Shown in pieces: positions 309 to 48,059 of a DNA stretch of 64,000 bases (position 1 is the stretch's first letter; the number at the start of each line of letters is the position of its first letter). A program made the position numbers and the translations under genes. The stretch comes from an uncultured Gammaproteobacteria bacterium (GTDB lineage: Bacteria > Pseudomonadota > Gammaproteobacteria > Poriferisulfidales > GCA-002705445), in the NCBI GenBank assembly GCA_913050095.1, contig CAJXAV010000001.1, positions 564 through 64,563 on the forward strand, written 5' to 3'. The notes beneath the pieces were generated by a model. That model was not told the origin of the DNA and ran no database searches. It saw nothing but the letters and a program-made list of their open reading frames with translations.

Positions 309-710
309 ATGGCAAGAATAACAGTAGAAGACTGCTTAGAAAAAGTAGATAACAGATTTCATTTAGTTAGAGTTGCAAGCAAACGAGCTAGGCAGTTAAT
401 GAATGGAAAAGAGCCATCACTCGAATGGGATAATGATAAAGCAACTGTTGTCGCTTTAAGAGAAATTGCAGCTGGAAATATAACTGAAGAAATGTTGGAA
501 GAAAAACCGGTAATCAACGAAGAAGACGGCATTTTTGAGCAAGCTGAGATTGATGCAGAAATTGGAGCACTATTAAGTGAAGATGCGGAATCAAGTAATG
601 AAGAATCCTTAGATGTTAAGTCAGAAGATAGCGAAATTAATAACCAAGAAGCACCTCTAGAAGCTGAAGTTATAACTCAGGATGGAATAGATACTTCTAA
701 AACAGATTAA
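309..710 (+). CDS. rpoZ: DNA-directed RNA polymerase omega subunit with a long acidic C-terminal extension
   Basis: N-terminus [30 protein letters not shown] is the canonical omega signature; it sits between gmk and spoT. Confidence 0.9.
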
Positions 711-728
711 TTTGGATAATTATATGAT

Positions 729-2912
729 ATGGCTGAGACTTCAAATTTAAAAAATCATAATTTGAACCAGCAAAGTTCGTCTAACCCCGCGCTTAATAGT
801 CTTTTAAAAAAATCAAAAACTTATTTAACTACGAACCAAATACTTCTTATCCGAGAAGCCTATACATTTAGTAATGAAAGTCACCAAGGTCAAGTGCGAA
901 AAAGTGGGGAACCATATATTAATCACCCACTTTCTGTAGCATCTATTCTTGCAGAGATGAAAATGGATGCTGTTAGCATAGCTGCTGCAATACTACACGA
1001 CGTTGTTGAAGATACAGCAGCTGGAAAAGATGATATACAAAAAAGATTTGGCTCAGAAATTGCAAAAATAGTAGATGGTGTAAGTAAAATTGATAAAAAT
1101 ATAAAATTTATATCTAGAAATGAAGCTCAGGCAGAAAATTTCAGTAAAATGATGTTAGCAATGTCTAACGATTTAAGAGTAATTTTGGTTAAACTAGCTG
1201 ATAGACTCCATAATATGAGAACTTTAGATTGTCTCTCAAAAGAAAAAAAATTAAGAATTGCCAAAGAAACTTTAGAAATTTATGTTCCAATAGCTTTAAG
1301 ATTAGGAATGAATAAATTAAGACTTGAGTTAGAAGAAATTTCTTTTAGAACTATAAATCCTTTACGATATAAAATTATTAGAAATGCAGTAAAAAACCAC
1401 AGAGGAAATAAAACCAAATTTTTAGATGACATTAAAGAAAAAATTAATGATAGATTGTCAGACTTAAATATTAAAGCCGATTTATATGCTCGACAAAAAA
1501 ATCCCTATAGTATTTATAAAAAAATGAAAAAAAAGAATTTGAGTTTTAATGCAGTTTTCGACATTTATGGTATTAGAGTTGTTGCTAGCAAAATTGATGA
1601 GTGTTACAGAATATTTGGTGCCACACATAATCTTTTTAAGCCAATACCTGGAAAATTTAAAGATTATATTGCCATCCCAAAATCAAATGGTTATCAAGCT
1701 CTTCATACGGTTCTATTTGGTCCAAATGCAATTCCTATAGAGATTCAAATAAGAACAAAAGAAATGGATCAGTTTGCTGAGTCTGGAATTGCATCTCATT
1801 GGCAATATAAGACTGGTGGTCACTCTTCAGCCCAAGCATATGCTAGAGATTGGTTGCAGAAAATCATGGAAATGAAGCAAAATACATTAAATTCCGTCGA
1901 TCTCCTTGAAAATATAAAAGTTGATTTGTTCCCAGATGAAATTTATGTTTTTACGCCAAAAGGAGAAATAAAAGAATTGCCTTACAGAAGTAGCGTTATT
2001 GACTACGCATATGCGATCCATTCAGATGTCGGAAATAAATGCACATCAGCAAAAATTAATAATATTGATGTTCCTTTAAGCACTACTTTATCTTCAGGTC
2101 AAACGGTTGAAATTATAACAACACCTTTAGGAAAGCCGAATCCGTCATGGCTAGAGTTTGTTGCAACAGTAAAGGCAAGAACAAATATAAAAAGTTACTT
2201 AAGAAATATGCAATCAGAACAAGCAGCAGACCTTGGTTTGAGAATACTAGACAAAGCTTTGTATGATTATGGGACTTCTTATACAGAAATTCCCTATCAT
2301 TCAATAAGAAGGTTATTAAATGAATATAATTTAAAAGATATAAATGATTTGTTCGTAGAAATAGGCTTAGGAAATATAGTTCCACATTTGGCTGCTCAAA
2401 ACATCGCGATTAAAAAAAGTTTTGTTAAACAAAAATATCATGATTGGGTTTCAAAAGTTTTAGGTTCTAAAAAAGTTGAAAACATCGCTATAAAAGGAAC
2501 GGAGGGATTAGTTTTAAACTATGCTAAATGTTGTAGACCAATTCCTGGAGATGAAGTTGTAGGTTTAACTTCTTCAGGCAATGGGTTTGTGGTTCATAGA
2601 TTAGTTTGTAATAATATAAAAAAAATAAAATCAAAAAAACTTTTTATAGAATGGTCAGATGATGTTGAGGGTGAATATCAAACTCAAATAAGAGTTTTTT
2701 CTGAGAAGCAAAGAGGAGTTCTTGCCAATGTTGCAGGTGTAATTTCACGACTTTCATGTAATATAGAAAATGTAAAATTTGATGAAGAACAAAACCCTTA
2801 TGCATCTTTTGTATTTACTTTAGAAGTAAAGAATAGAAAACAACTTGCAGATGTAATAAAAGAGCTAAAAAAACTAAAAAATATTAATAAAGTAATGAGG
2901 ACAGTAGGATAA
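729..2912 (+). CDS. spoT: bifunctional (p)ppGpp synthetase/hydrolase
   Basis: 727 aa; the HD hydrolase motif (ILHDVVEDT) is intact and a RelA/SpoT synthetase motif (YQALHTV) is present, with a C-terminal regulatory region; rpoZ-spoT-recG synteny. Confidence 0.85.
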   Translation: MAETSNLKNHNLNQQSSSNPALNSLLKKSKTYLTTNQILLIREAYTFSNESHQGQVRKSGEPYINHPLSVASILAEMKMDAVSIAAAILHDVVEDTAAGKDDIQKRFGSEIAKIVDGVSKIDKNIKFISRNEAQAENFSKMMLAMSNDLRVILVKLADRLHNMRTLDCLSKEKKLRIAKETLEIYVPIALRLGMNKLRLELEEISFRTINPLRYKIIRNAVKNHRGNKTKFLDDIKEKINDRLSDLNIKADLYARQKNPYSIYKKMKKKNLSFNAVFDIYGIRVVASKIDECYRIFGATHNLFKPIPGKFKDYIAIPKSNGYQALHTVLFGPNAIPIEIQIRTKEMDQFAESGIASHWQYKTGGHSSAQAYARDWLQKIMEMKQNTLNSVDLLENIKVDLFPDEIYVFTPKGEIKELPYRSSVIDYAYAIHSDVGNKCTSAKINNIDVPLSTTLSSGQTVEIITTPLGKPNPSWLEFVATVKARTNIKSYLRNMQSEQAADLGLRILDKALYDYGTSYTEIPYHSIRRLLNEYNLKDINDLFVEIGLGNIVPHLAAQNIAIKKSFVKQKYHDWVSKVLGSKKVENIAIKGTEGLVLNYAKCCRPIPGDEVVGLTSSGNGFVVHRLVCNNIKKIKSKKLFIEWSDDVEGEYQTQIRVFSEKQRGVLANVAGVISRLSCNIENVKFDEEQNPYASFVFTLEVKNRKQLADVIKELKKLKNINKVMRTVG

Positions 2913-7066: not shown

Positions 7067-8467
7067 ATGGCAAAGAATACAAAAAAACCTTGGCAGGGAA
7101 GATTTAAAGGAAAAACGAATAAGTTCGTTGAAGATTTTACTTCGTCAATTAATTTTGATTATAGACTTGCGTATTATGATATTTTGGGCTCAGAAGCGCA
7201 TTCAAGAATGCTGAATTCGATTGGAATTTTGAATAATAGTGAACTTAAAAAAATTCTGTCTGCTCTGAAAAAGGTAAATAAAAAAATAATGAATGGTGAT
7301 ATGAAGCATAATAATTCACTAGAAGACATACATATGCATATTGAACATGAGTTAATAGAGTTAATAGGAGATACTGCAAAAAAAATTCACACTGGGAGAT
7401 CAAGAAATGATCAGGTTGCCACAGATGTAAGAATGTATGTGAGAGATGAAATTCTTACAATTTTGGATGACATAAATGAACTTCAAAAAACGATTATAAA
7501 AATAGCTGAAAAATATTCTTCTAGTATTATTCCTGGATTTACCCACTTACAGGTGGCACAGCCAGTAACTTTTGGATTCATTATGATGGCATGGTTTTTT
7601 ATGCTAGAAAGAGATAAAGAGAGATTTGTAATGAGTTTTCCTAATGTAAATCTTTGCCCTCTAGGATCTGGCGCAATGTCTGGTTCTTCCCATAAACTTG
7701 ACAGAAAATTTGTATCTGATTTCCTAATGTTTGACGGTATTACAGATAATGCTTTAGATAGTGTTAGCGACAGAGATTTTATAATAGAGTTTATAAGTAA
7801 TTCATCTTTGCTAATGACGCATTTATCAAGATTTTCAGAAGAAATTATAATATGGAATTCTACTATGTATAATTTTGTTGATTTAGATGATCAGGTATGT
7901 ACAGGCTCGTCTATTATGCCTCAAAAGAAAAATCCAGATGTTTTAGAATTAATAAGAGGAAAAACAGGAAGCATTTACGGGCAACTAATGAATATTTTAA
8001 CAATAATGAAATCCCAACCTTTTGCCTACAATAGAGATAATCAAGAAGATAAGCCAGCATTATTTAATTGCGGTGATACTATAATAAAATGTCTTAAAGC
8101 AATGAATATCTGTCTTGAAAACTTAAAGTTAAATGAAAGCATCACAAAAGAAGCTGCTAAAAAAGGCTTTTCAACAGCCACTGATTTTGCGGATTATCTA
8201 GTAAAAAAGAGTGTGCCCTTTAGAGACGCACATGAAATTGTTGGTAAGACAGTTGCATATGCAATTAGCAAAAAATTGAGCTTAGACGAATTGACTGTCG
8301 TAGAATTTAAATCATTTTGCAAAAGTATTGAATCTGATGTTTATGAATCATTAAAAGTCGAAGGCTCTGTAAATAGTAAAAAAACTTTTGGTGGGACATC
8401 AAAAAAAGAAGTACTAAGACAAATTAAAAAAGCTAAAAAACTTATAAATGCATATGAGAAGGGTTAA
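7067..8467 (+). CDS. argH: argininosuccinate lyase
   Basis: 466 aa; N-terminus WQGRF...EAHSRML and fumarate-lyase signature GSSIMPQKKNPD. Confidence 0.9.
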   Translation: MAKNTKKPWQGRFKGKTNKFVEDFTSSINFDYRLAYYDILGSEAHSRMLNSIGILNNSELKKILSALKKVNKKIMNGDMKHNNSLEDIHMHIEHELIELIGDTAKKIHTGRSRNDQVATDVRMYVRDEILTILDDINELQKTIIKIAEKYSSSIIPGFTHLQVAQPVTFGFIMMAWFFMLERDKERFVMSFPNVNLCPLGSGAMSGSSHKLDRKFVSDFLMFDGITDNALDSVSDRDFIIEFISNSSLLMTHLSRFSEEIIIWNSTMYNFVDLDDQVCTGSSIMPQKKNPDVLELIRGKTGSIYGQLMNILTIMKSQPFAYNRDNQEDKPALFNCGDTIIKCLKAMNICLENLKLNESITKEAAKKGFSTATDFADYLVKKSVPFRDAHEIVGKTVAYAISKKLSLDELTVVEFKSFCKSIESDVYESLKVEGSVNSKKTFGGTSKKEVLRQIKKAKKLINAYEKG

Positions 8468-15500: not shown

Positions 15501-17651
15501 ATGAGCCTAGATTATAATCTTAATAACCTTAATGAAGCTCAAAGAGATGCAGTATGCAATTTATCTAAAAATTGTTTAGTGATAGCTGGGGCGGGCAGTG
15601 GTAAAACCAGAGTTTTAATTCAAAGAATATTATGGCTAATAGAAGATAACGATTATTCTCCATTCTCTATATTAGCTGTGACTTTTACAAATAAAGCAGC
15701 AAGAGAAATAAAAACAAGACTATCAGAAAACATTGATAATAATATTGATAGCATGTGGGTAGGAACATTTCATGGTATATGTTACAGAATATTAAGGGCA
15801 AATTATGAAAAAGCTAATCTAGTCAAAAATTTTCAGATTATCGATAGTGATGATCAGGTAAGAATCATCAAAAGAATTATGAAAGATAACGAGATTGATA
15901 ATTCTCAAGTTATTCCAAAACAAGTAGCTTGGTATATTAATAAAAAAAAGGATCAAAGTATTAGGAGTAATAAAACTAAAAACGATGACTTTATAAATAT
16001 TCAATATAATAAAATTTATAAAATATACGAAGAATATTGTAATAATAGTGGTCTTGTAGATTTTGGTGAAATTATTTTAAGAACTTTGGAATTACTAAAA
16101 AACAATGATGAGATAAGAGCGTATTACCATAGATTATTTAAATCTATATTAATCGACGAATTTCAAGATACAAATACAATTCAATATGATCTTATAAAAA
16201 TCTTAACAAGCACGGAAACCTCCATTTTTGCTGTTGGCGACGACGATCAATCTATTTATGGATGGAGAGGAGCTAAGGTTGAAAATATAAAAAAATTGCA
16301 GAAAGATTTTAAGAATACAAATGTATTTAGGCTTGAGCAGAATTATAGATCATCAGGAAATATATTAAATGCAGCTAATAGCATAATAATTAACAATAAT
16401 TCAAGAATGGGAAAAAATTTATGGACAGAGGATAAAAGTGGAGACTTAATAAAAATTTTCTCAGCTAGTGACGAAATTGATGAAGCAGCTTTTGTGGTTG
16501 AAACTATTGAGCAGCATATTTCTGAAAATTACAAGAGAAGTGAAGTAGCAATATTATATCGGTCAAATGCTCAATCTAGAATATTTGAGGAAAAATTCGT
16601 TTCCAAAGGTATCCCATATAAAATTTATGGCGGCTTTAGGTTCTTTGAAAGGGCCGAGATAAAAGATGTGATTGCTTATATGAGACTTGCTACGAGCAAC
16701 GATGACGACAACTCTTTTGAAAGAATTGTAAACACACCACCAAGAGGTATAGGAGAAAAAACAAAAAATTTATTAAGAGAATTTTCAAAAGAAAAAGAAA
16801 TATCTTTATTTAAATCTATACCGTTAGCATTAGAAGAATCAATTCTGAGTAAAAAAGCTGGAGAGTCATTATCAAAATTCTGCAATCTTATAAATATAAT
16901 ATCATCAATTTTAGAAAAAGATGATTTGCCGCATCAAATAAATGAAATAATCAAAGTTTCAAATATAAAGTCAATTTATGAAAAAAATAAAACTGAACAG
17001 TCAAGATCAAAATTAGAAAATTTAGATGAGTTAATTTCTGCTGCTCAGGAGTTTATTAATACTGATTTAGATCAAAATGAGACTATTATTGACGCCTTCT
17101 TAACGCATACATCATTAGAATCAGGAGAAGGACAAGGAAATGAATGGGATGAATGTATACAACTCATGACTCTGCATTCTTCAAAGGGTTTAGAATTTCC
17201 AATTGTTTTTTTGGTTGGGCTGGAAGAAAATTTATTTCCAAGTAGAATGTCAATTGAGGAAGATAATCTAGAAGAAGAAAGAAGACTCTGTTATGTTGGC
17301 ATTACTAGAGCAAGAAAAAAGCTGTATATTTCTCACGCTCAAATGAGAAGACAATATGGAACAGAAAATTATTGTATGCCATCAAGATTTTTAAATGAAA
17401 TTCCCGAAGAAGTTATTGAGGAAATTGGTTATAACCCAAAAAAAATATTTAAAAAAGAAAATTCTATGGTTTATAAAAATATTCGTAATGAAAATAGTAT
17501 AATGGGTAAAAGAGTTTTGCATAAAAAATTTGGAGAAGGGGTGGTGATTTCAACGGAAGGTTCTGATTCTAATACTAGAGTTCAAGTATCTTTTGATAAT
17601 TCAGGTTGCAAATGGCTAATTTTGGCTATAGCAAATTTGGAGATTATTTAA
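15501..17651 (+). CDS. uvrD: DNA helicase II UvrD
   Basis: 716 aa SF1 helicase (GAGSGKTRVL); the UvrD-type C-terminal Tudor-like tail (GKRVLHKKFGEGVVIS...) and position after xerC favour UvrD over Rep. Confidence 0.85.
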   Translation: MSLDYNLNNLNEAQRDAVCNLSKNCLVIAGAGSGKTRVLIQRILWLIEDNDYSPFSILAVTFTNKAAREIKTRLSENIDNNIDSMWVGTFHGICYRILRANYEKANLVKNFQIIDSDDQVRIIKRIMKDNEIDNSQVIPKQVAWYINKKKDQSIRSNKTKNDDFINIQYNKIYKIYEEYCNNSGLVDFGEIILRTLELLKNNDEIRAYYHRLFKSILIDEFQDTNTIQYDLIKILTSTETSIFAVGDDDQSIYGWRGAKVENIKKLQKDFKNTNVFRLEQNYRSSGNILNAANSIIINNNSRMGKNLWTEDKSGDLIKIFSASDEIDEAAFVVETIEQHISENYKRSEVAILYRSNAQSRIFEEKFVSKGIPYKIYGGFRFFERAEIKDVIAYMRLATSNDDDNSFERIVNTPPRGIGEKTKNLLREFSKEKEISLFKSIPLALEESILSKKAGESLSKFCNLINIISSILEKDDLPHQINEIIKVSNIKSIYEKNKTEQSRSKLENLDELISAAQEFINTDLDQNETIIDAFLTHTSLESGEGQGNEWDECIQLMTLHSSKGLEFPIVFLVGLEENLFPSRMSIEEDNLEEERRLCYVGITRARKKLYISHAQMRRQYGTENYCMPSRFLNEIPEEVIEEIGYNPKKIFKKENSMVYKNIRNENSIMGKRVLHKKFGEGVVISTEGSDSNTRVQVSFDNSGCKWLILAIANLEII

Positions 17652-44971: not shown

Positions 44972-46486
44972 ATGAAAATAAATTACATAAAAGAAATAAA
45001 TGAAAGCAATGTATACGATGTTGCAGAAAAAACACCATTGACATTGTTGACTAAAATTTCTACAAAATACGAGAATACTATTTATTTAAAAAGAGAGGAT
45101 TTACAGCCTATTTTTTCTTTCAAATGCCGTGGGGCATATAATAAAATTAGCAATCTTAATAAAACACAGATAGCTAAAGGAATAATAGCTGCATCAGCGG
45201 GTAATCATGCCCAAGGCGTTGCATTATCAGCCTCTAAATTAAATATTGATGCTAAAATTGTAATGCCAACAACAACACCATCTATAAAAATAGAATCTGT
45301 AAAAAAATTTGGTGTGCAAGTTGTCCTTTTTGGTGATTCTTTTGATGAGGCGTATGATTTTGCAGTAGAGGCCTCAAAAAAAGAAGAAAGGGTGTTCATC
45401 CATCCATTTGATGATCCATTGGTAATAGCAGGACAAGGCACAGTAGCAAAGGAAATAGTGGAGCAATCTAATGAGGAACCCGATATTTTTTTTATACCAG
45501 TTGGAGGTGGCGGCCTTATGTCAGGGATGTCGATTTACTTAAAAAAGTATTATCCAAATGCAAAAATATATGGAGTTGAGTCTGAGGATGCGCCAACTTT
45601 ACATACGTCCTTGGAGAATAATAAACCAACTAGCTTAGACCAAGTTGGGTTATTCGTTGATGGATGTGCGGTAAAAAGAATTGGTGATGAGACGTTCAAT
45701 ATATCTAAAAATTATGTCGACGGTGTGATATTAGTGTCAATTGATGAAACTTGCGCAGCTATAAAAGACATATATGAAGACACAAGAGTAATGTCTGAGC
45801 CAGCTGGAGCATTGTCGGTAGCAGGAATGAAAAAGTTTATTGTAAGCAACAATATAAAAAATAAAAAAATTGTGACTATAAACTCTGGTGCAAATCTTAA
45901 TTTTGATAGATTAAGGCATGTAACTGAAAGAGCAGAGATAGGAGAAGGTAGAGAAGTTTTGTTATCAGTTAAAATTCCTGAAAAATCTGGTAGCTTTAGG
46001 GAATTTTGTGAAGTAATAGGCAGAAGAAGTATTAGCGAGTTTAATTATAGATATGCTAGTAATAATTCAGCAAATGTTTTTGTAGGTATAAAGACTGATA
46101 ATATAGCCGAAGACACAAAAAAAATATCTAGCGACTTAAATAGTAAGAATTATGATTTTATAGACCTTACTAAAGACGAGGTTGCTAAATTACATTTAAG
46201 ATATATGGTGGGCGGGAAGCCAAACTCAAAAATTAATGAAAAACTATTTCGATTTGAGTTTCCTGAAAAACCTGGAGCATTATTAAATTTTTTAAATAAA
46301 ATGAAAAGTGATTGGAATATCACTTTATTTCATTACAGAAATCATGGTTCTGCATTTGGAAGGGTTCTCGTCGGAATTGATATTTTAGATTGTAGTGAGC
46401 ATGATTTAGGAGAATTTTTGACAGATTTAGGTTATAAGTTTACCGATGAGACGAATAACAAAGGATATTCATCTTTTTTGAAATAA
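44972..46486 (+). CDS. ilvA: threonine dehydratase, biosynthetic (with C-terminal ACT-like regulatory domains)
   Basis: 504 aa; PLP Lys motif (SFKCRGA), GGGGL glycine loop and two C-terminal regulatory domains. Confidence 0.9.
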   Translation: MKINYIKEINESNVYDVAEKTPLTLLTKISTKYENTIYLKREDLQPIFSFKCRGAYNKISNLNKTQIAKGIIAASAGNHAQGVALSASKLNIDAKIVMPTTTPSIKIESVKKFGVQVVLFGDSFDEAYDFAVEASKKEERVFIHPFDDPLVIAGQGTVAKEIVEQSNEEPDIFFIPVGGGGLMSGMSIYLKKYYPNAKIYGVESEDAPTLHTSLENNKPTSLDQVGLFVDGCAVKRIGDETFNISKNYVDGVILVSIDETCAAIKDIYEDTRVMSEPAGALSVAGMKKFIVSNNIKNKKIVTINSGANLNFDRLRHVTERAEIGEGREVLLSVKIPEKSGSFREFCEVIGRRSISEFNYRYASNNSANVFVGIKTDNIAEDTKKISSDLNSKNYDFIDLTKDEVAKLHLRYMVGGKPNSKINEKLFRFEFPEKPGALLNFLNKMKSDWNITLFHYRNHGSAFGRVLVGIDILDCSEHDLGEFLTDLGYKFTDETNNKGYSSFLK

Positions 46487-46492
46487 AAAAAA

Positions 46493-46508
46493 GGCCTCTT
46501 AAGAGGCC
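46493..46508. terminator. bidirectional rho-independent terminator (perfect palindrome)
   Basis: GGCCTCTT|AAGAGGCC flanked by A8 upstream and T3 downstream; it serves convergent ilvA (+) and the lysine-rich gene (-), and the T-run is stronger on the minus strand. Confidence 0.7.
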
Positions 46509-46531
46509 TTTAATATTGCTACCTAACGAAA

Positions 46532-46858
46532 CTATCTTTTCCTTCTTGTAGTTTTACGTTTAGCTACTTTCTTTTTAACTTTACGCTTAGCTACTTTCTT
46601 CTTCACTTTACGCTTAGTTACTTTCTTCTTCACTTTACGCTTAGTTACTTTTTTCTTCACTTTACGCTTAGTTACTTTTTTCTTTGCTGCTTTTCTTTTT
46701 GTTACTTTTTTCTTAGCTTTCTTTTTAACTTTACGCTTAGTTACTTTTTTCTTAGTTACTTTACGCTTAGTTACTTTCTTTTTAGCTGCTTTTCTTACAA
46801 CTTTTTTCTTTGCAGCTGACTTTCTTACTACCTTCTTCTTCTTTCGTTTAATGGCCAT
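46532..46858 (-). CDS. histone H1-like lysine-rich (poly-K) DNA-binding protein, repeats of KKKVTKRKV
   Basis: 108 aa, over 60% Lys/Arg with tandem 9-aa repeats; intact ORF with a strong GGAGG Shine-Dalgarno 7 nt upstream of the ATG; resembles AlgP, BpH1 and Hc1-type bacterial H1-like proteins. Confidence 0.65.
   Translation of the reverse strand: MAIKRKKKKVVRKSAAKKKVVRKAAKKKVTKRKVTKKKVTKRKVKKKAKKKVTKRKAAKKKVTKRKVKKKVTKRKVKKKVTKRKVKKKVAKRKVKKKVAKRKTTRRKR
46578..46790. repeat. 27-bp tandem coding repeats (unit about CACTTTACGCTTAGTTACTTTCTTCTT)
   Basis: At least five near-identical tandem copies visible within the lysine-rich gene, each encoding KKKVTKRKV. Confidence 0.8.
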
Positions 46859-47094
46859 TTAAATCCTCCAAAACACTTAAAAGTTGGTTATCAAATAAAA
46901 GTGTAATGATCTAAATACAAAATACAATCTTTTTTTTTATTTAAAAACATAACTTTTAAAGATTGTAGGTAAATACATTGAAAAAATATTTTTTTTTGTT
47001 GTTTTTACAAATATTTCTTAATATTTTATTTTAATTTTTCATTTTTAAAGCTTTTTTGTTAATTAATTAACTTATTTCTTGGTTTTTTAATAAA

Positions 47095-47225
47095 ATTTTT
47101 TAAGTTTTTAAGTTTTTTTTTAGTATTTTTTAAGTTTTTAAGTTTTTTTTTAGTATTTTTTAAGTTTTTTTTGTTTTTTTACAGTTATTTTAAGTTTTTT
47201 TTGTTTATTTTTTGTTTTTTTAGTC
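47095..47225. repeat. T-rich intergenic tandem repeats (perfect 30-bp duplication plus degenerate copies)
   Basis: 47101-47130 and 47131-47160 are identical (TAAGTTTTTAAGTTTTTTTTTAGTATTTTT), followed by two copies of TAAGTTTTTTTTGTTT...; these are phased A-tracts on the minus strand. Confidence 0.8.
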
Positions 47226-47294
47226 TTTTTATAAAAAAATTATGTTTTTTTGTTTTTTTTTATAAATTTTTAAATTTTAGATGATTTTGAAAGG

Positions 47295-47466
47295 AAAAAA
47301 CCGATGTACCGTTATTATTAATTTTCCTTGAACCGTTGAGTTCAGGTGGGTCTAAGTTTAAAACTTTAGGCTTCCTAAATAATAGGTTTGCACACCAGAT
47401 TTTAGTAACTTAATCCCTTTTAAAAAATTAGGAACAAAGATATAACAACAATATCGTGTACATCAG
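47295..47466 (-). ncRNA. ssrS: 6S RNA (ssrS)
   Basis: On the minus strand immediately downstream of zapA, the conserved ssrS position. The sequence contains GGAAGCCUAAAG and CACCUGAACUCAACGGUUCAAGG, matching E. coli 6S GAGAAGCCUUAAAAC and CACCUUGAACCAAGGGUUCAAGG. The 5' GAUGUAC...GUUGUUAU and 3' AUAAUAAC.GUACAUC ends pair as a closing stem, followed by a U-run. Confidence 0.65.
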
Positions 47467-47523
47467 TTCTTATTTGAATATATCAAATTAGTTCGTTATA
47501 GACCAGTGTATAAAATATGAAAA

Positions 47524-47826
47524 TTAATTTTGAATTAACAAGTCTAATTTTTGATTTAAATTAGAAATTTTTTGTTTCACTGAAGAATTCAATGTGTTTG
47601 TCATATCTTTATGATTTAATGAATCACTTGCGAAATTTAAAGCTGAGATTACAGCAATTCTATCAAGACCAATAGTTTTTCCTTCAGCTTTTGTCTTCAT
47701 CATTTTATCATTCAGTAGCTCGGCTGATTTCATCAAAGCATCTTTTTCATTACTGGCGCAGAAAACGTCATAGTTTTGATTAAGAATTTTAACTGTTACA
47801 GGGATTTTGTTACTTTCATTGTCCAT
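47524..47826 (-). CDS. zapA: cell division protein ZapA
   Basis: 100 aa; ZapA-like N-terminal sequence (VTVKILNQNYDV...) and conserved position upstream of ssrS and divergent from pepP. Confidence 0.8.
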   Translation of the reverse strand: MDNESNKIPVTVKILNQNYDVFCASNEKDALMKSAELLNDKMMKTKAEGKTIGLDRIAVISALNFASDSLNHKDMTNTLNSSVKQKISNLNQKLDLLIQN

Positions 47827-48059
47827 TACTGAGTGTACTCCAGCGATCTTAGTCTATTTATTATTCCTTCTACTTTTGTTTGAACTTTTTGATTTTTTTC
47901 TTTGATTTTGAATTTTTCAGACACTTCTTTTTCTTGTCTTTCTCTTAGAAGTTGATTTTCTTTCTTTAGTTCTAAATATTTGTTAGACAATATCTCTATT
48001 TTGCTTTCAAGTTCGTCTAGCTCTTTATTTAGTTCAGATATTATGTGATCATTATTCAT
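47826..48059 (-). CDS. coiled-coil protein of the TIGR02449 / ZapB-like family
   Basis: 77 aa all-coiled-coil (heptad Leu/Glu/Lys pattern) directly upstream of and overlapping zapA, as in Pseudomonas. Confidence 0.55.
   Translation of the reverse strand: MNNDHIISELNKELDELESKIEILSNKYLELKKENQLLRERQEKEVSEKFKIKEKNQKVQTKVEGIINRLRSLEYTQ

Follow-up and report, generated by a model that had tools for sequence, protein, structure and literature searches.

The window analysed here, a stretch of 64,000 nucleotides from contig CAJXAV010000001.1 of an uncultured gammaproteobacterium, contains on its minus strand a small gene whose product is built almost entirely from lysine- and arginine-rich tandem repeats. 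This open reading frame (ORF), hereafter the polycation gene, is a genuine protein-coding gene and not a repeat artefact, because its synteny, frame, start codon, Shine-Dalgarno (SD) sequence and terminator are conserved among relatives and its termini are under purifying selection. The architecture of the protein parallels that of the DNA-binding proteins Hc2 and BpH1, and the gene has a promoter region that is probably curved. On these two grounds we put at about even the chance that the polycation is a nucleoid protein of the histone H1 or protamine type that binds and compacts DNA.

A conserved gene for a repeat-built polycation

The polycation (full sequence MAIKRKKKKVVRKSAAKKKVVRKAAKKKVTKRKVTKKKVTKRKVKKKAKKKVTKRKAAKKKVTKRKVKKKVTKRKVKKKVTKRKVKKKVAKRKVKKKVAKRKTTRRKR) comprises 54 Lys, 14 Arg, 18 Val, 10 Ala and 9 Thr residues together with one each of Met, Ile and Ser. 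Acidic, aromatic, Gly, Pro, Asn and Gln residues are absent, giving a net charge of approximately +68 over 108 residues, or +0.63 per residue. Tandem Repeats Finder resolves the core of the gene (46553–46684) into 4.9 copies of a 27-bp unit with 95% matches and no indels, and finds looser, degenerate periodicities of 15, 30, 69 and 96 bp in the remainder of the ORF. The window has a G+C content of 24–35%, mostly around 28%, and among its 61 ORFs of at least 100 residues only this one is preceded by a full GGAGG. An earlier note on this DNA had described an ORF with more than 60% Lys and Arg, near-perfect 27-bp direct repeats encoding KKKVTKRKV, and a canonical GGAGG SD sequence. This description is borne out by the residue count (63% Lys plus Arg), by the repeat analysis and by the position of the GGAGG at 46865–46869, 6 nt before the ATG, where it is conserved in relatives.

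Relatives were located using ilvA and its product as a synteny anchor, and through a metagenome scan with a DNA pattern spanning the SD sequence and the first ten codons. All 50 complete syntenic loci recovered from other samples, representing 43 distinct DNA sequences, contain an intact polycation ORF in the same slot (zapB–zapA–6S RNA ... polycation ORF ... convergent ilvA). A Tara Oceans contig (L001) encodes exactly the window protein. Intact ORFs are likewise present on the IlvA-anchored contigs, where they encode 129 residues on three long-read contigs (L009–L011), 123 on L013 and L014 and 119 on L018–L021, as well as 97 residues on L017, whose IlvA is 68% identical. The metagenome scan returned 40 loci, every one of them syntenic with ilvA and/or zapA–6S; 36 have complete ORFs of 80–152 residues and four are cut by contig ends. 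The gene also occupies this slot in a distant clade (IlvA 58% identical, approximately 41% G+C; contigs of 387 kb and 2.4 Mb), in which the protein takes the form MAVKRK(TAKRK)n...KKRR and then stops, the two copies of 137 and 122 residues being three pentamers apart. The gene is thus not a by-product of AT-rich DNA, nor is it peculiar to streamlined AT-rich genomes, the setting in which the earlier note had remarked on it.

Substitution patterns and repeat periods indicate that the sense frame is the one being maintained. Across the first 34 codons the synonymous difference (pS) is 0.48 and the nonsynonymous difference (pN) 0.14, a pN/pS of 0.30. In all 43 distinct genes the best tandem-repeat period is a multiple of 3 (periods of 15, 27, 30, 39, 54, 69, 72, 75, 81, 84, 99, 102 and 123 bp are observed). 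The other sense frames are full of stop codons, and two antisense frames are stop-poor in some members for compositional reasons. We rejected a Phe/Leu-rich antisense coding frame, as its start-bearing ORF varies from 9 to 146 codons, is not conserved and lacks an SD sequence. The claim of the earlier note that this is a real gene is sustained by the 50 intact loci of 50 and by the N-terminal pN/pS, and a search among the relatives for a case in which the DNA repeats persist with the ORF lost or frameshifted found none.

Repeat grammar and length variation

Both ends of the protein are conserved across the family, the N terminus as MAIKRKKKKVV.K..AKKKVVRKAAKKKVTKRK and the C terminus as KRK..R(R/K)K(R/K) at the stop codon, and the middle is lineage-specific. 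Some members carry 9-residue units (KKKVTKRKV, KKKVAKKKV) and others 5-residue units (ten copies of VAKKK in L045, about 22 of TAKRK in L062), 27-residue units (3.2 copies in L009, 3.9 in L030) or units of 28, 33 and 34 residues. The body is composed throughout of Lys-rich modules of 4–5 residues (VKKK, VAKKK, VTKRK, TAKRK) set within DNA repeats of 15–123 bp.

Loci with at least 96% identity across 330 nt at the 3′ end of the neighbouring ilvA were placed in one species-level group. Of the nine multi-member groups, six contain more than one protein length (94/115/118/124/128/138, 95/110/123, 80/94/102, 98/152 and 98/116 residues). In the group of the window itself the lengths are 90, 108 and 126 residues, and a codon-by-codon comparison of the window with L001, L026, L036 and L040 shows that the alleles differ by exact 54-bp blocks of two units within the 46553–46684 core. 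Copy number therefore varies between strains as the earlier note had predicted, with a family-wide range of 80–152 residues. Slippage or unequal recombination among the repeats would alter protein length in frame, with selection retaining both termini, the reading frame and the residue composition.

Several contigs break off within the gene (L002, at 7560–7728, and L015, L016, L033, L034, L048 and L049), and the only close GTDB representative genome, SI036_bin62, is among the short-read contigs that end within the repeat. That so many contigs end there indicates that the repeat fragments assemblies, leaving the gene often missing or truncated in metagenome-assembled genomes.

Codon use

Lysine is encoded by AAG in 43% of cases in the polycation gene (15% in the other ORFs of the window) and arginine by CGT in 50% (4% in the other ORFs). 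Through this biased codon choice the longest A-run in the gene stays at 6 nt. Recoding the protein with background usage gives a mean longest run of 11.7 nt, with none of 2,000 simulations at 6 nt or below, and shuffling the observed Lys codons keeps the longest run to 6 nt or less in only 0.4% of trials; family-wide the longest run is 6–8 nt. Ribosomes and polymerases slip on poly(A), and the codon pattern looks like selection against such slippery runs. The preference for CGT was also considered as a sign of high expression and rejected, because GroEL uses CGT for only 1 of its 21 Arg codons; a likelier reading is that runs of purines or of A are being avoided, or that the codon has been carried along as repeats were copied.

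A phased A-tract array abuts the putative promoter

Upstream of the polycation gene lies a 330-bp array of A-tracts in helical register (Table 1), within which Tandem Repeats Finder detects 30-bp tandem units at 47082–47232. The Fourier power of the phasing is 0.74, compared with 0.21 ± 0.07 in shuffled sequences, and none of 300 shuffles reaches it. Scanned across the window, the signal at the array is the strongest (0.70; runner-up 0.27, 99th percentile 0.15). Phasing at 10.0–10.25 bp is found in the window and in all 11 AT-rich relatives tested, L017 included. In the 41% G+C clade the spacer is 79% A+T and its A- and T-tracts are phased more weakly, at 10.5–10.75 bp, with both tract types, taken separately, above nearly all shuffles. 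The contigs with upstream phasing are L009, L013, L017, L018, L032, L038, L041, L043, L048, L049, L054, L062 and L063. The array is thus conserved as a property in both clades, and its sequence is not. Phased A-tracts bend DNA, and the array is probably intrinsically curved, judging from its tract spacing.

Alignment of 35 distinct upstream regions reveals the conserved blocks AAAAAAAAGATTGTAT and ATCATTAAACT, and the array ends in a putative promoter of the pattern A9-GATTGTAT-16 nt-TAAACT. The −10 element reads TACACT in the window and TATAAT in L017. The 5′ untranslated region (UTR) that this predicts, about 40 nt long, is highly conserved, and no stable fold was detected in it (z = −0.38). 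Some lineages (for example L018, L022, L027, L039, L041 and L048) duplicate the UTR motif AAC(A/C)AACTTTAA (11 nt) in the interval from the −10 box to the SD sequence; apart from this the UTR is almost invariant.

In the 41% G+C clade, a gene for an EVE-domain protein (PF01878, E = 1e-60; 7345–7797 in L062, 7231–7683 in L063) lies between the 6S RNA gene and the polycation gene. This insertion weakens the idea of an obligatory 6S RNA–polycation operon, which we had entertained. The array persists where the EVE gene separates the ORF from 6S RNA, suggesting that the polycation gene has its own promoter and that its adjacency to 6S RNA is incidental.

Sigma-70 promoters are stimulated by upstream bends and by A-rich UP-like elements. 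H1 and bacterial nucleoid proteins also favour curved or A-tract DNA as a target, and several of the bacterial proteins use it to regulate their own synthesis; hns, for instance, is autorepressed via upstream bent DNA. With these precedents in mind, we propose that the array acts as a promoter enhancer, an autoregulatory site, or both. Transcription would most likely start at the gene's own promoter (A9, TTGTAT, 16 nt, TAAACT), fused to the array, and the curved DNA would boost that promoter and/or serve as the protein's preferred binding site, limiting its own synthesis. The gene is probably strongly expressed.

The polycation matches no known family

Comparison of the protein with Pfam, NCBIfam and PHROGs by hmmscan gave no family match, in Pfam at E ≤ 1 for the window protein and at E ≤ 10 for four orthologues, although the composition filters of HMMER may hide weak low-complexity matches, so that the Pfam negatives are not proof of non-homology. 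The only match of a phmmer search against the PDB is ribosomal eL33, at a non-significant E of 0.21. A word-indexed search of 5.8 billion proteins and a full phmmer search of 1.84 billion representatives returned nothing beyond fragments of the polycation gene itself and K-rich matches due to chance. Neither the window protein nor the four orthologues were found by exact look-up in a clustered collection of 15 billion proteins, and the DNA pattern of SD sequence and start codon has no match among 2.9 million viral contigs. We found no paper describing the protein in the literature. Its low complexity makes filing by homology impossible.

The earlier note had named AlgP, Hc1 and H1 as proteins to compare, and no model of linker histone, Hc1, Hc2, AlgP or HU matches. 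The linker histone H1/H5 family (PF00538) is unmatched and there is no winged-helix globular domain. Nor does Hc1/HctA (PF07432) match, the N terminus being itself polybasic (MAIKRKKKK...) and giving no match to the dimerisation domain. The HU fold (PF00216, Bac_DNA_binding) is found by neither Pfam nor NCBIfam. A ribosomal homology, which would point away from a nucleoid function, was sought in Pfam and NCBIfam and yielded no match, and the gene is not placed in a ribosomal operon, its neighbours being ilvA, ssrS and zapA.

AlphaFold2, run on the single sequence, predicts one helix over residues 2–107 (predicted local distance difference test score 91, predicted template modelling score 0.38) and no globular domain. 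We read this as a propensity and not a fold, because a helix with a charge of +68 would need a polyanion. An amphipathic helix was discarded on inspection by hand, as the V/T/A positions (4, 5 and 9 of the 9-mer) fall all round the helical wheel and leave no hydrophobic face.

Two contigs appear to give the polycation a different C terminus. In L007 (positions 1–400, P0004) the polycation 5′ UTR and first ~45 codons are joined to the tail of a high-G+C gene. We rejected the resulting globular C-terminal domain as an assembly chimera, given the jump in G+C after ~200 nt and the unrelated neighbours; the chimera most likely formed through the Lys-codon repeats. L008, an AT-rich contig of 523 bp, has the same promoter, UTR and N terminus (165–514, P0002) followed by an EF-hand-like tail (DLNKDGKVTFADV), and the ORF after it matches phrog_16028, a phage family (E = 8e-17). 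We treat L008 as a chimera, the alternative being a copy of the polycation gene captured by a phage.

Terminator and gene neighbourhood

On the minus strand the order is zapB-like gene, zapA, 6S RNA, a 435-nt A-rich spacer, polycation ORF and terminator (Table 1), with pepP–ubiH-like genes diverging from the zapB-like gene. The terminator hairpin lies 20 nt past the polycation stop codon and has a 9-bp stem with 5 G–C pairs, followed on this strand by T8. Relatives show compensatory changes in the stem (GGCCTC/GAGGCC, GGCTCC/GGAGCC, GACCTC/GAGGTC, GCCCCA/TGGGGC, GGGTCC/GGACCC). The earlier note had called the terminator strong and bidirectional; the second word is only partly right, for in the ilvA direction what comes after the stem is TTTAATATT, a weak T-run, and the terminator scan made no call. 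The same scan detected no terminator between 6S RNA and the polycation ORF.

The 6S RNA is found at the loci of relatives too, and Rfam at E ≤ 1 gives only this RNA and terminator-like noise around the gene. By comparison with the E. coli map, the locus is the classical gammaproteobacterial pepP/zapA–ssrS neighbourhood, in which the polycation gene fills the slot of ygfA/fau.

Elsewhere in the window, rpoZ (RNA polymerase omega) and then a full-length RelA/SpoT-family gene at 309–2912 (plus strand) provide an ordinary gammaproteobacterial context. A match to Rfam RF03531 (n00280, 'C. difficile sRNA included into helicase gene'; 67.6 bits, gathering threshold 65.2) at 17244–17343 (plus strand) falls inside a UvrD/Rep helicase ORF (15501–17651), so the model probably picks up helicase coding sequence and not a small RNA.

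Table 1 Features of the polycation locus in the window
Feature	Position	Strand	Details
Polycation gene	46532..46858	−	108 aa, 63% K+R, zero acidic residues
Conserved N terminus of the polycation			MAIKRKKKKVVRK.AAKKKVVRKAAKKKVTKRK
Conserved C terminus of the window polycation			..KRKTTRRKR, then stop
Core of near-perfect 27-bp (9-aa) tandem repeats	46553..46684	−	KKKVTKRKV / KKKVAKRKV
Shine-Dalgarno GGAGG	46865..46869	−	6 nt 5′ of ATG; kept in all relatives
Putative promoter block	46900..46938	−	A9 46930–46938; −35 TTGTAT 46922–46927; 16-nt spacer; −10 TACACT 46900–46905
Helically phased A-tract array	46921..47250	−	330 bp; 25–27 tracts of A4 or longer; 62% A (coding strand); period ~10.25 bp
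Intrinsic terminator, common to polycation gene and convergent ilvA	46490..46511	−	AAAGGCCTC-TTAA-GAGGCCTTT, then T8
6S RNA (ssrS)	47294..47472	−	Upstream of polycation gene; Rfam RF00013, 88.5 bits
zapA	47524–47826	−	Pfam PF05164, 1.7e-16
zapB-like gene	47826–48059	−	TIGR02449, 2e-10
ilvA (threonine dehydratase)	44972..46486	+	Pfam PALP and Thr_dehydrat_C; convergent

Comparison with known polycations

As polycations without structure of their own, H1 tails and protamines condense DNA by neutralising its charge; H1 tails gain helix when they bind it. The charge density of the window protein is at about the level of protamine, but its charge is carried by Lys and not by Arg. Unlike eukaryotic H1 it has Val and Thr in place of Ala, Pro and Ser, and no winged-helix globular domain; nothing indicates common descent with either H1 or protamine. 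The family as a whole is composed of 52% Lys, 15% Val, 14% Ala, 11% Arg, 5% Thr and 0.2% Pro. The resemblance to H1 tails, AlgP and Hc1 suggested in the earlier note stands as an analogy of Lys-rich composition and architecture, but not beyond that, the protein being Val-rich and nearly free of Pro and matching none of the corresponding models.

The closest parallel in architecture is with Hc2 (HctB) and the Hc2-like or BpH1 proteins of Bordetella, Burkholderia, Herminiimonas and Ralstonia, which are also small and nearly all basic. Hc2 has conserved flanks around a variable number of higher-order elements made of Lys-rich pentamers, and its frame is never lost (PMC2848022). Conserved flanks, basic pentamers grouped into higher-order elements, and in-frame gain and loss between strains are shared with the polycation, as a likeness of architecture only. 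By contrast, the polycation has no match to the Hc2 model (PF07382), and its pentamers have 3–4 positive residues out of 5 with Val as the main spacer, where those of Hc2 have 2 out of 5 and otherwise mainly Ala. The hosts differ too: the polycation belongs to free-living marine Gammaproteobacteria, of another phylum and lifestyle from Chlamydia and with no known developmental cycle. Its fixed synteny between 6S/zapA and ilvA and its phased A-tract array are features not described for hctB in PMC2848022.

AlgP combines a helical N-terminal domain of 124 residues with KPAA repeats and has a net charge of +55 in 352 residues (PMC9239181). The C-terminal domains of AlgP and PhaF share with the polycation short Lys tandem repeats, intrinsic disorder, binding of polyanions (DNA, polyphosphate, RNA) and a mutationally unstable repeat. 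The polycation differs in having neither the Pro-rich KPAA motif, with its one positive residue in four, nor a second domain, and in carrying +68 in only 108 residues. The actinobacterial MDP1/HupB, HupS, Ku and TopA tails consist of Lys repeats of the PAKKA/AKKA type, which are reported to raise DNA affinity; these tails are appended to folded DNA-binding domains, whereas here the repeat is the whole protein. Lysine-rich H1-like bacterial proteins are decades old as a concept, and the polycation belongs to no annotated family.

What the polycation may bind

If the polycation is a nucleoid protein, every part of the chain would bind nucleic acid non-specifically through the phosphate backbone, and charge neutralisation would condense or bridge the chromosome as H1 C-terminal tails, protamines and Hc2 do. 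The structure prediction suggests that neutralisation of its charge may allow the protein to become helical. Several points weigh against this reading. A protein with a charge of +68 binds any polyanion, and ribosomes and their rRNA are the most abundant polyanion of the cell; the H1-like tails of PhaF are reported to bind RNA (PMC12818456), and AlgP is found on polyphosphate granules (PMC9239181). Low complexity means that homology to known nucleoid proteins cannot be shown, and the Val-rich, nearly Pro-free composition is unlike that of H1, Hc2 and AlgP. Most of the contigs with variant lengths are short-read assemblies, in which repeat collapse may explain part of the length variation, and the three long-read contigs of one population (L009–L011) are identical, although, having been selected by exact identity of IlvA, they are biased towards one strain. 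Repeats copy their own codons, which deprives the codon counts of independence, and CGT is on the GroEL evidence no marker of high expression in this genome.

The polycation could instead associate with RNA or ribosomes, as a chaperone of rRNA, mRNA or 6S RNA, a counter-ion that stabilises ribosomes, or a modulator of translation. We consider this somewhat unlikely. Electrostatics do not separate DNA from RNA; PhaF, with its H1-like tail, is reported to be an RNA-binding translation activator (PMC12818456), and MDP1 is reported to condense RNA (PMC13639343). The polycation gene follows ssrS on the minus strand, the terminator scan having detected no terminator in the interval, and the sole PDB match, non-significant as it is, is to a ribosomal protein. 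Set against this, the protein matches no ribosomal-protein or RNA-binding family in Pfam or NCBIfam, its gene is outside any ribosomal operon, and length variation of 90–138 residues between strains is uncharacteristic of a stoichiometric component of the ribosome. The link to 6S RNA, moreover, is not conserved, since in the distant clade the EVE gene intervenes and the polycation gene retains an AT-rich, phased upstream region of its own. A role like that of AlgP, in which the protein would coat granules of polyphosphate or another polyanion and tether them to the nucleoid, is very unlikely: AlgP is enriched on polyphosphate granules and needed for their spacing (PMC9239181), and the polycation is more highly charged than AlgP, but it lacks an AlgP-like structured N-terminal domain and KPAA repeats, and there are no ppk or granule genes in the locus.

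It is scarcely credible that the ORF is non-functional, whether as a non-coding or selfish repeat or a part of the curved DNA that is open by chance, or that the antisense product is the real one. In its favour, stop codons are by nature rare in purine-rich repeats, some members have no stops in two antisense frames, and no protein family matches. Yet at all 50 loci the sense ORF is intact although indels are many, each one preserving the frame; the ATG, GGAGG and terminator are conserved, the N-terminal pN/pS is low (0.30) and poly(A) runs are avoided; and the 41% G+C clade keeps the same protein logic with another repeat unit. The antisense ORF, at 9–146 codons and without an SD sequence, shows no such constancy, and the comparative data largely exclude this explanation.

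Returning to the nucleoid reading, a stronger form of it is that the polycation and the A-tract array constitute one self-limiting chromatin module, with the polycation as the main DNA-packaging counter-ion of an abundant uncultured lineage. Free protein in excess of DNA would then bind the array cooperatively and shut off synthesis, coupling the protein level to DNA content, and expansion or contraction of the repeat would tune protein length, and hence DNA footprint, between strains. This extended proposal we regard as unlikely.

Significance

The conserved pairing of a nucleoid-protein-like gene with probably curved promoter DNA makes the model of autoregulation testable. The family also offers a natural series of proteins (80–152 residues, with varied repeat grammars) with which to study the effect of polycation length and spacing on the condensation of DNA. 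hctB is used as a variable-number tandem-repeat (VNTR) marker for typing Chlamydia, and the polycation gene provides a natural in-frame VNTR by which strains in metagenomes could likewise be typed.

Such a protein escapes notice at several levels. Annotation misses it, as there is no Pfam or NCBIfam model and the repeats break short-read assemblies at the locus, and trypsin would cut it into peptides of 1–4 residues, hiding it from tryptic proteomics. Bacterial chromatin outside model organisms is poorly known, and the locus points to a dedicated protamine-like polycation, missed by standard pipelines, in a widespread group of uncultured marine Gammaproteobacteria.

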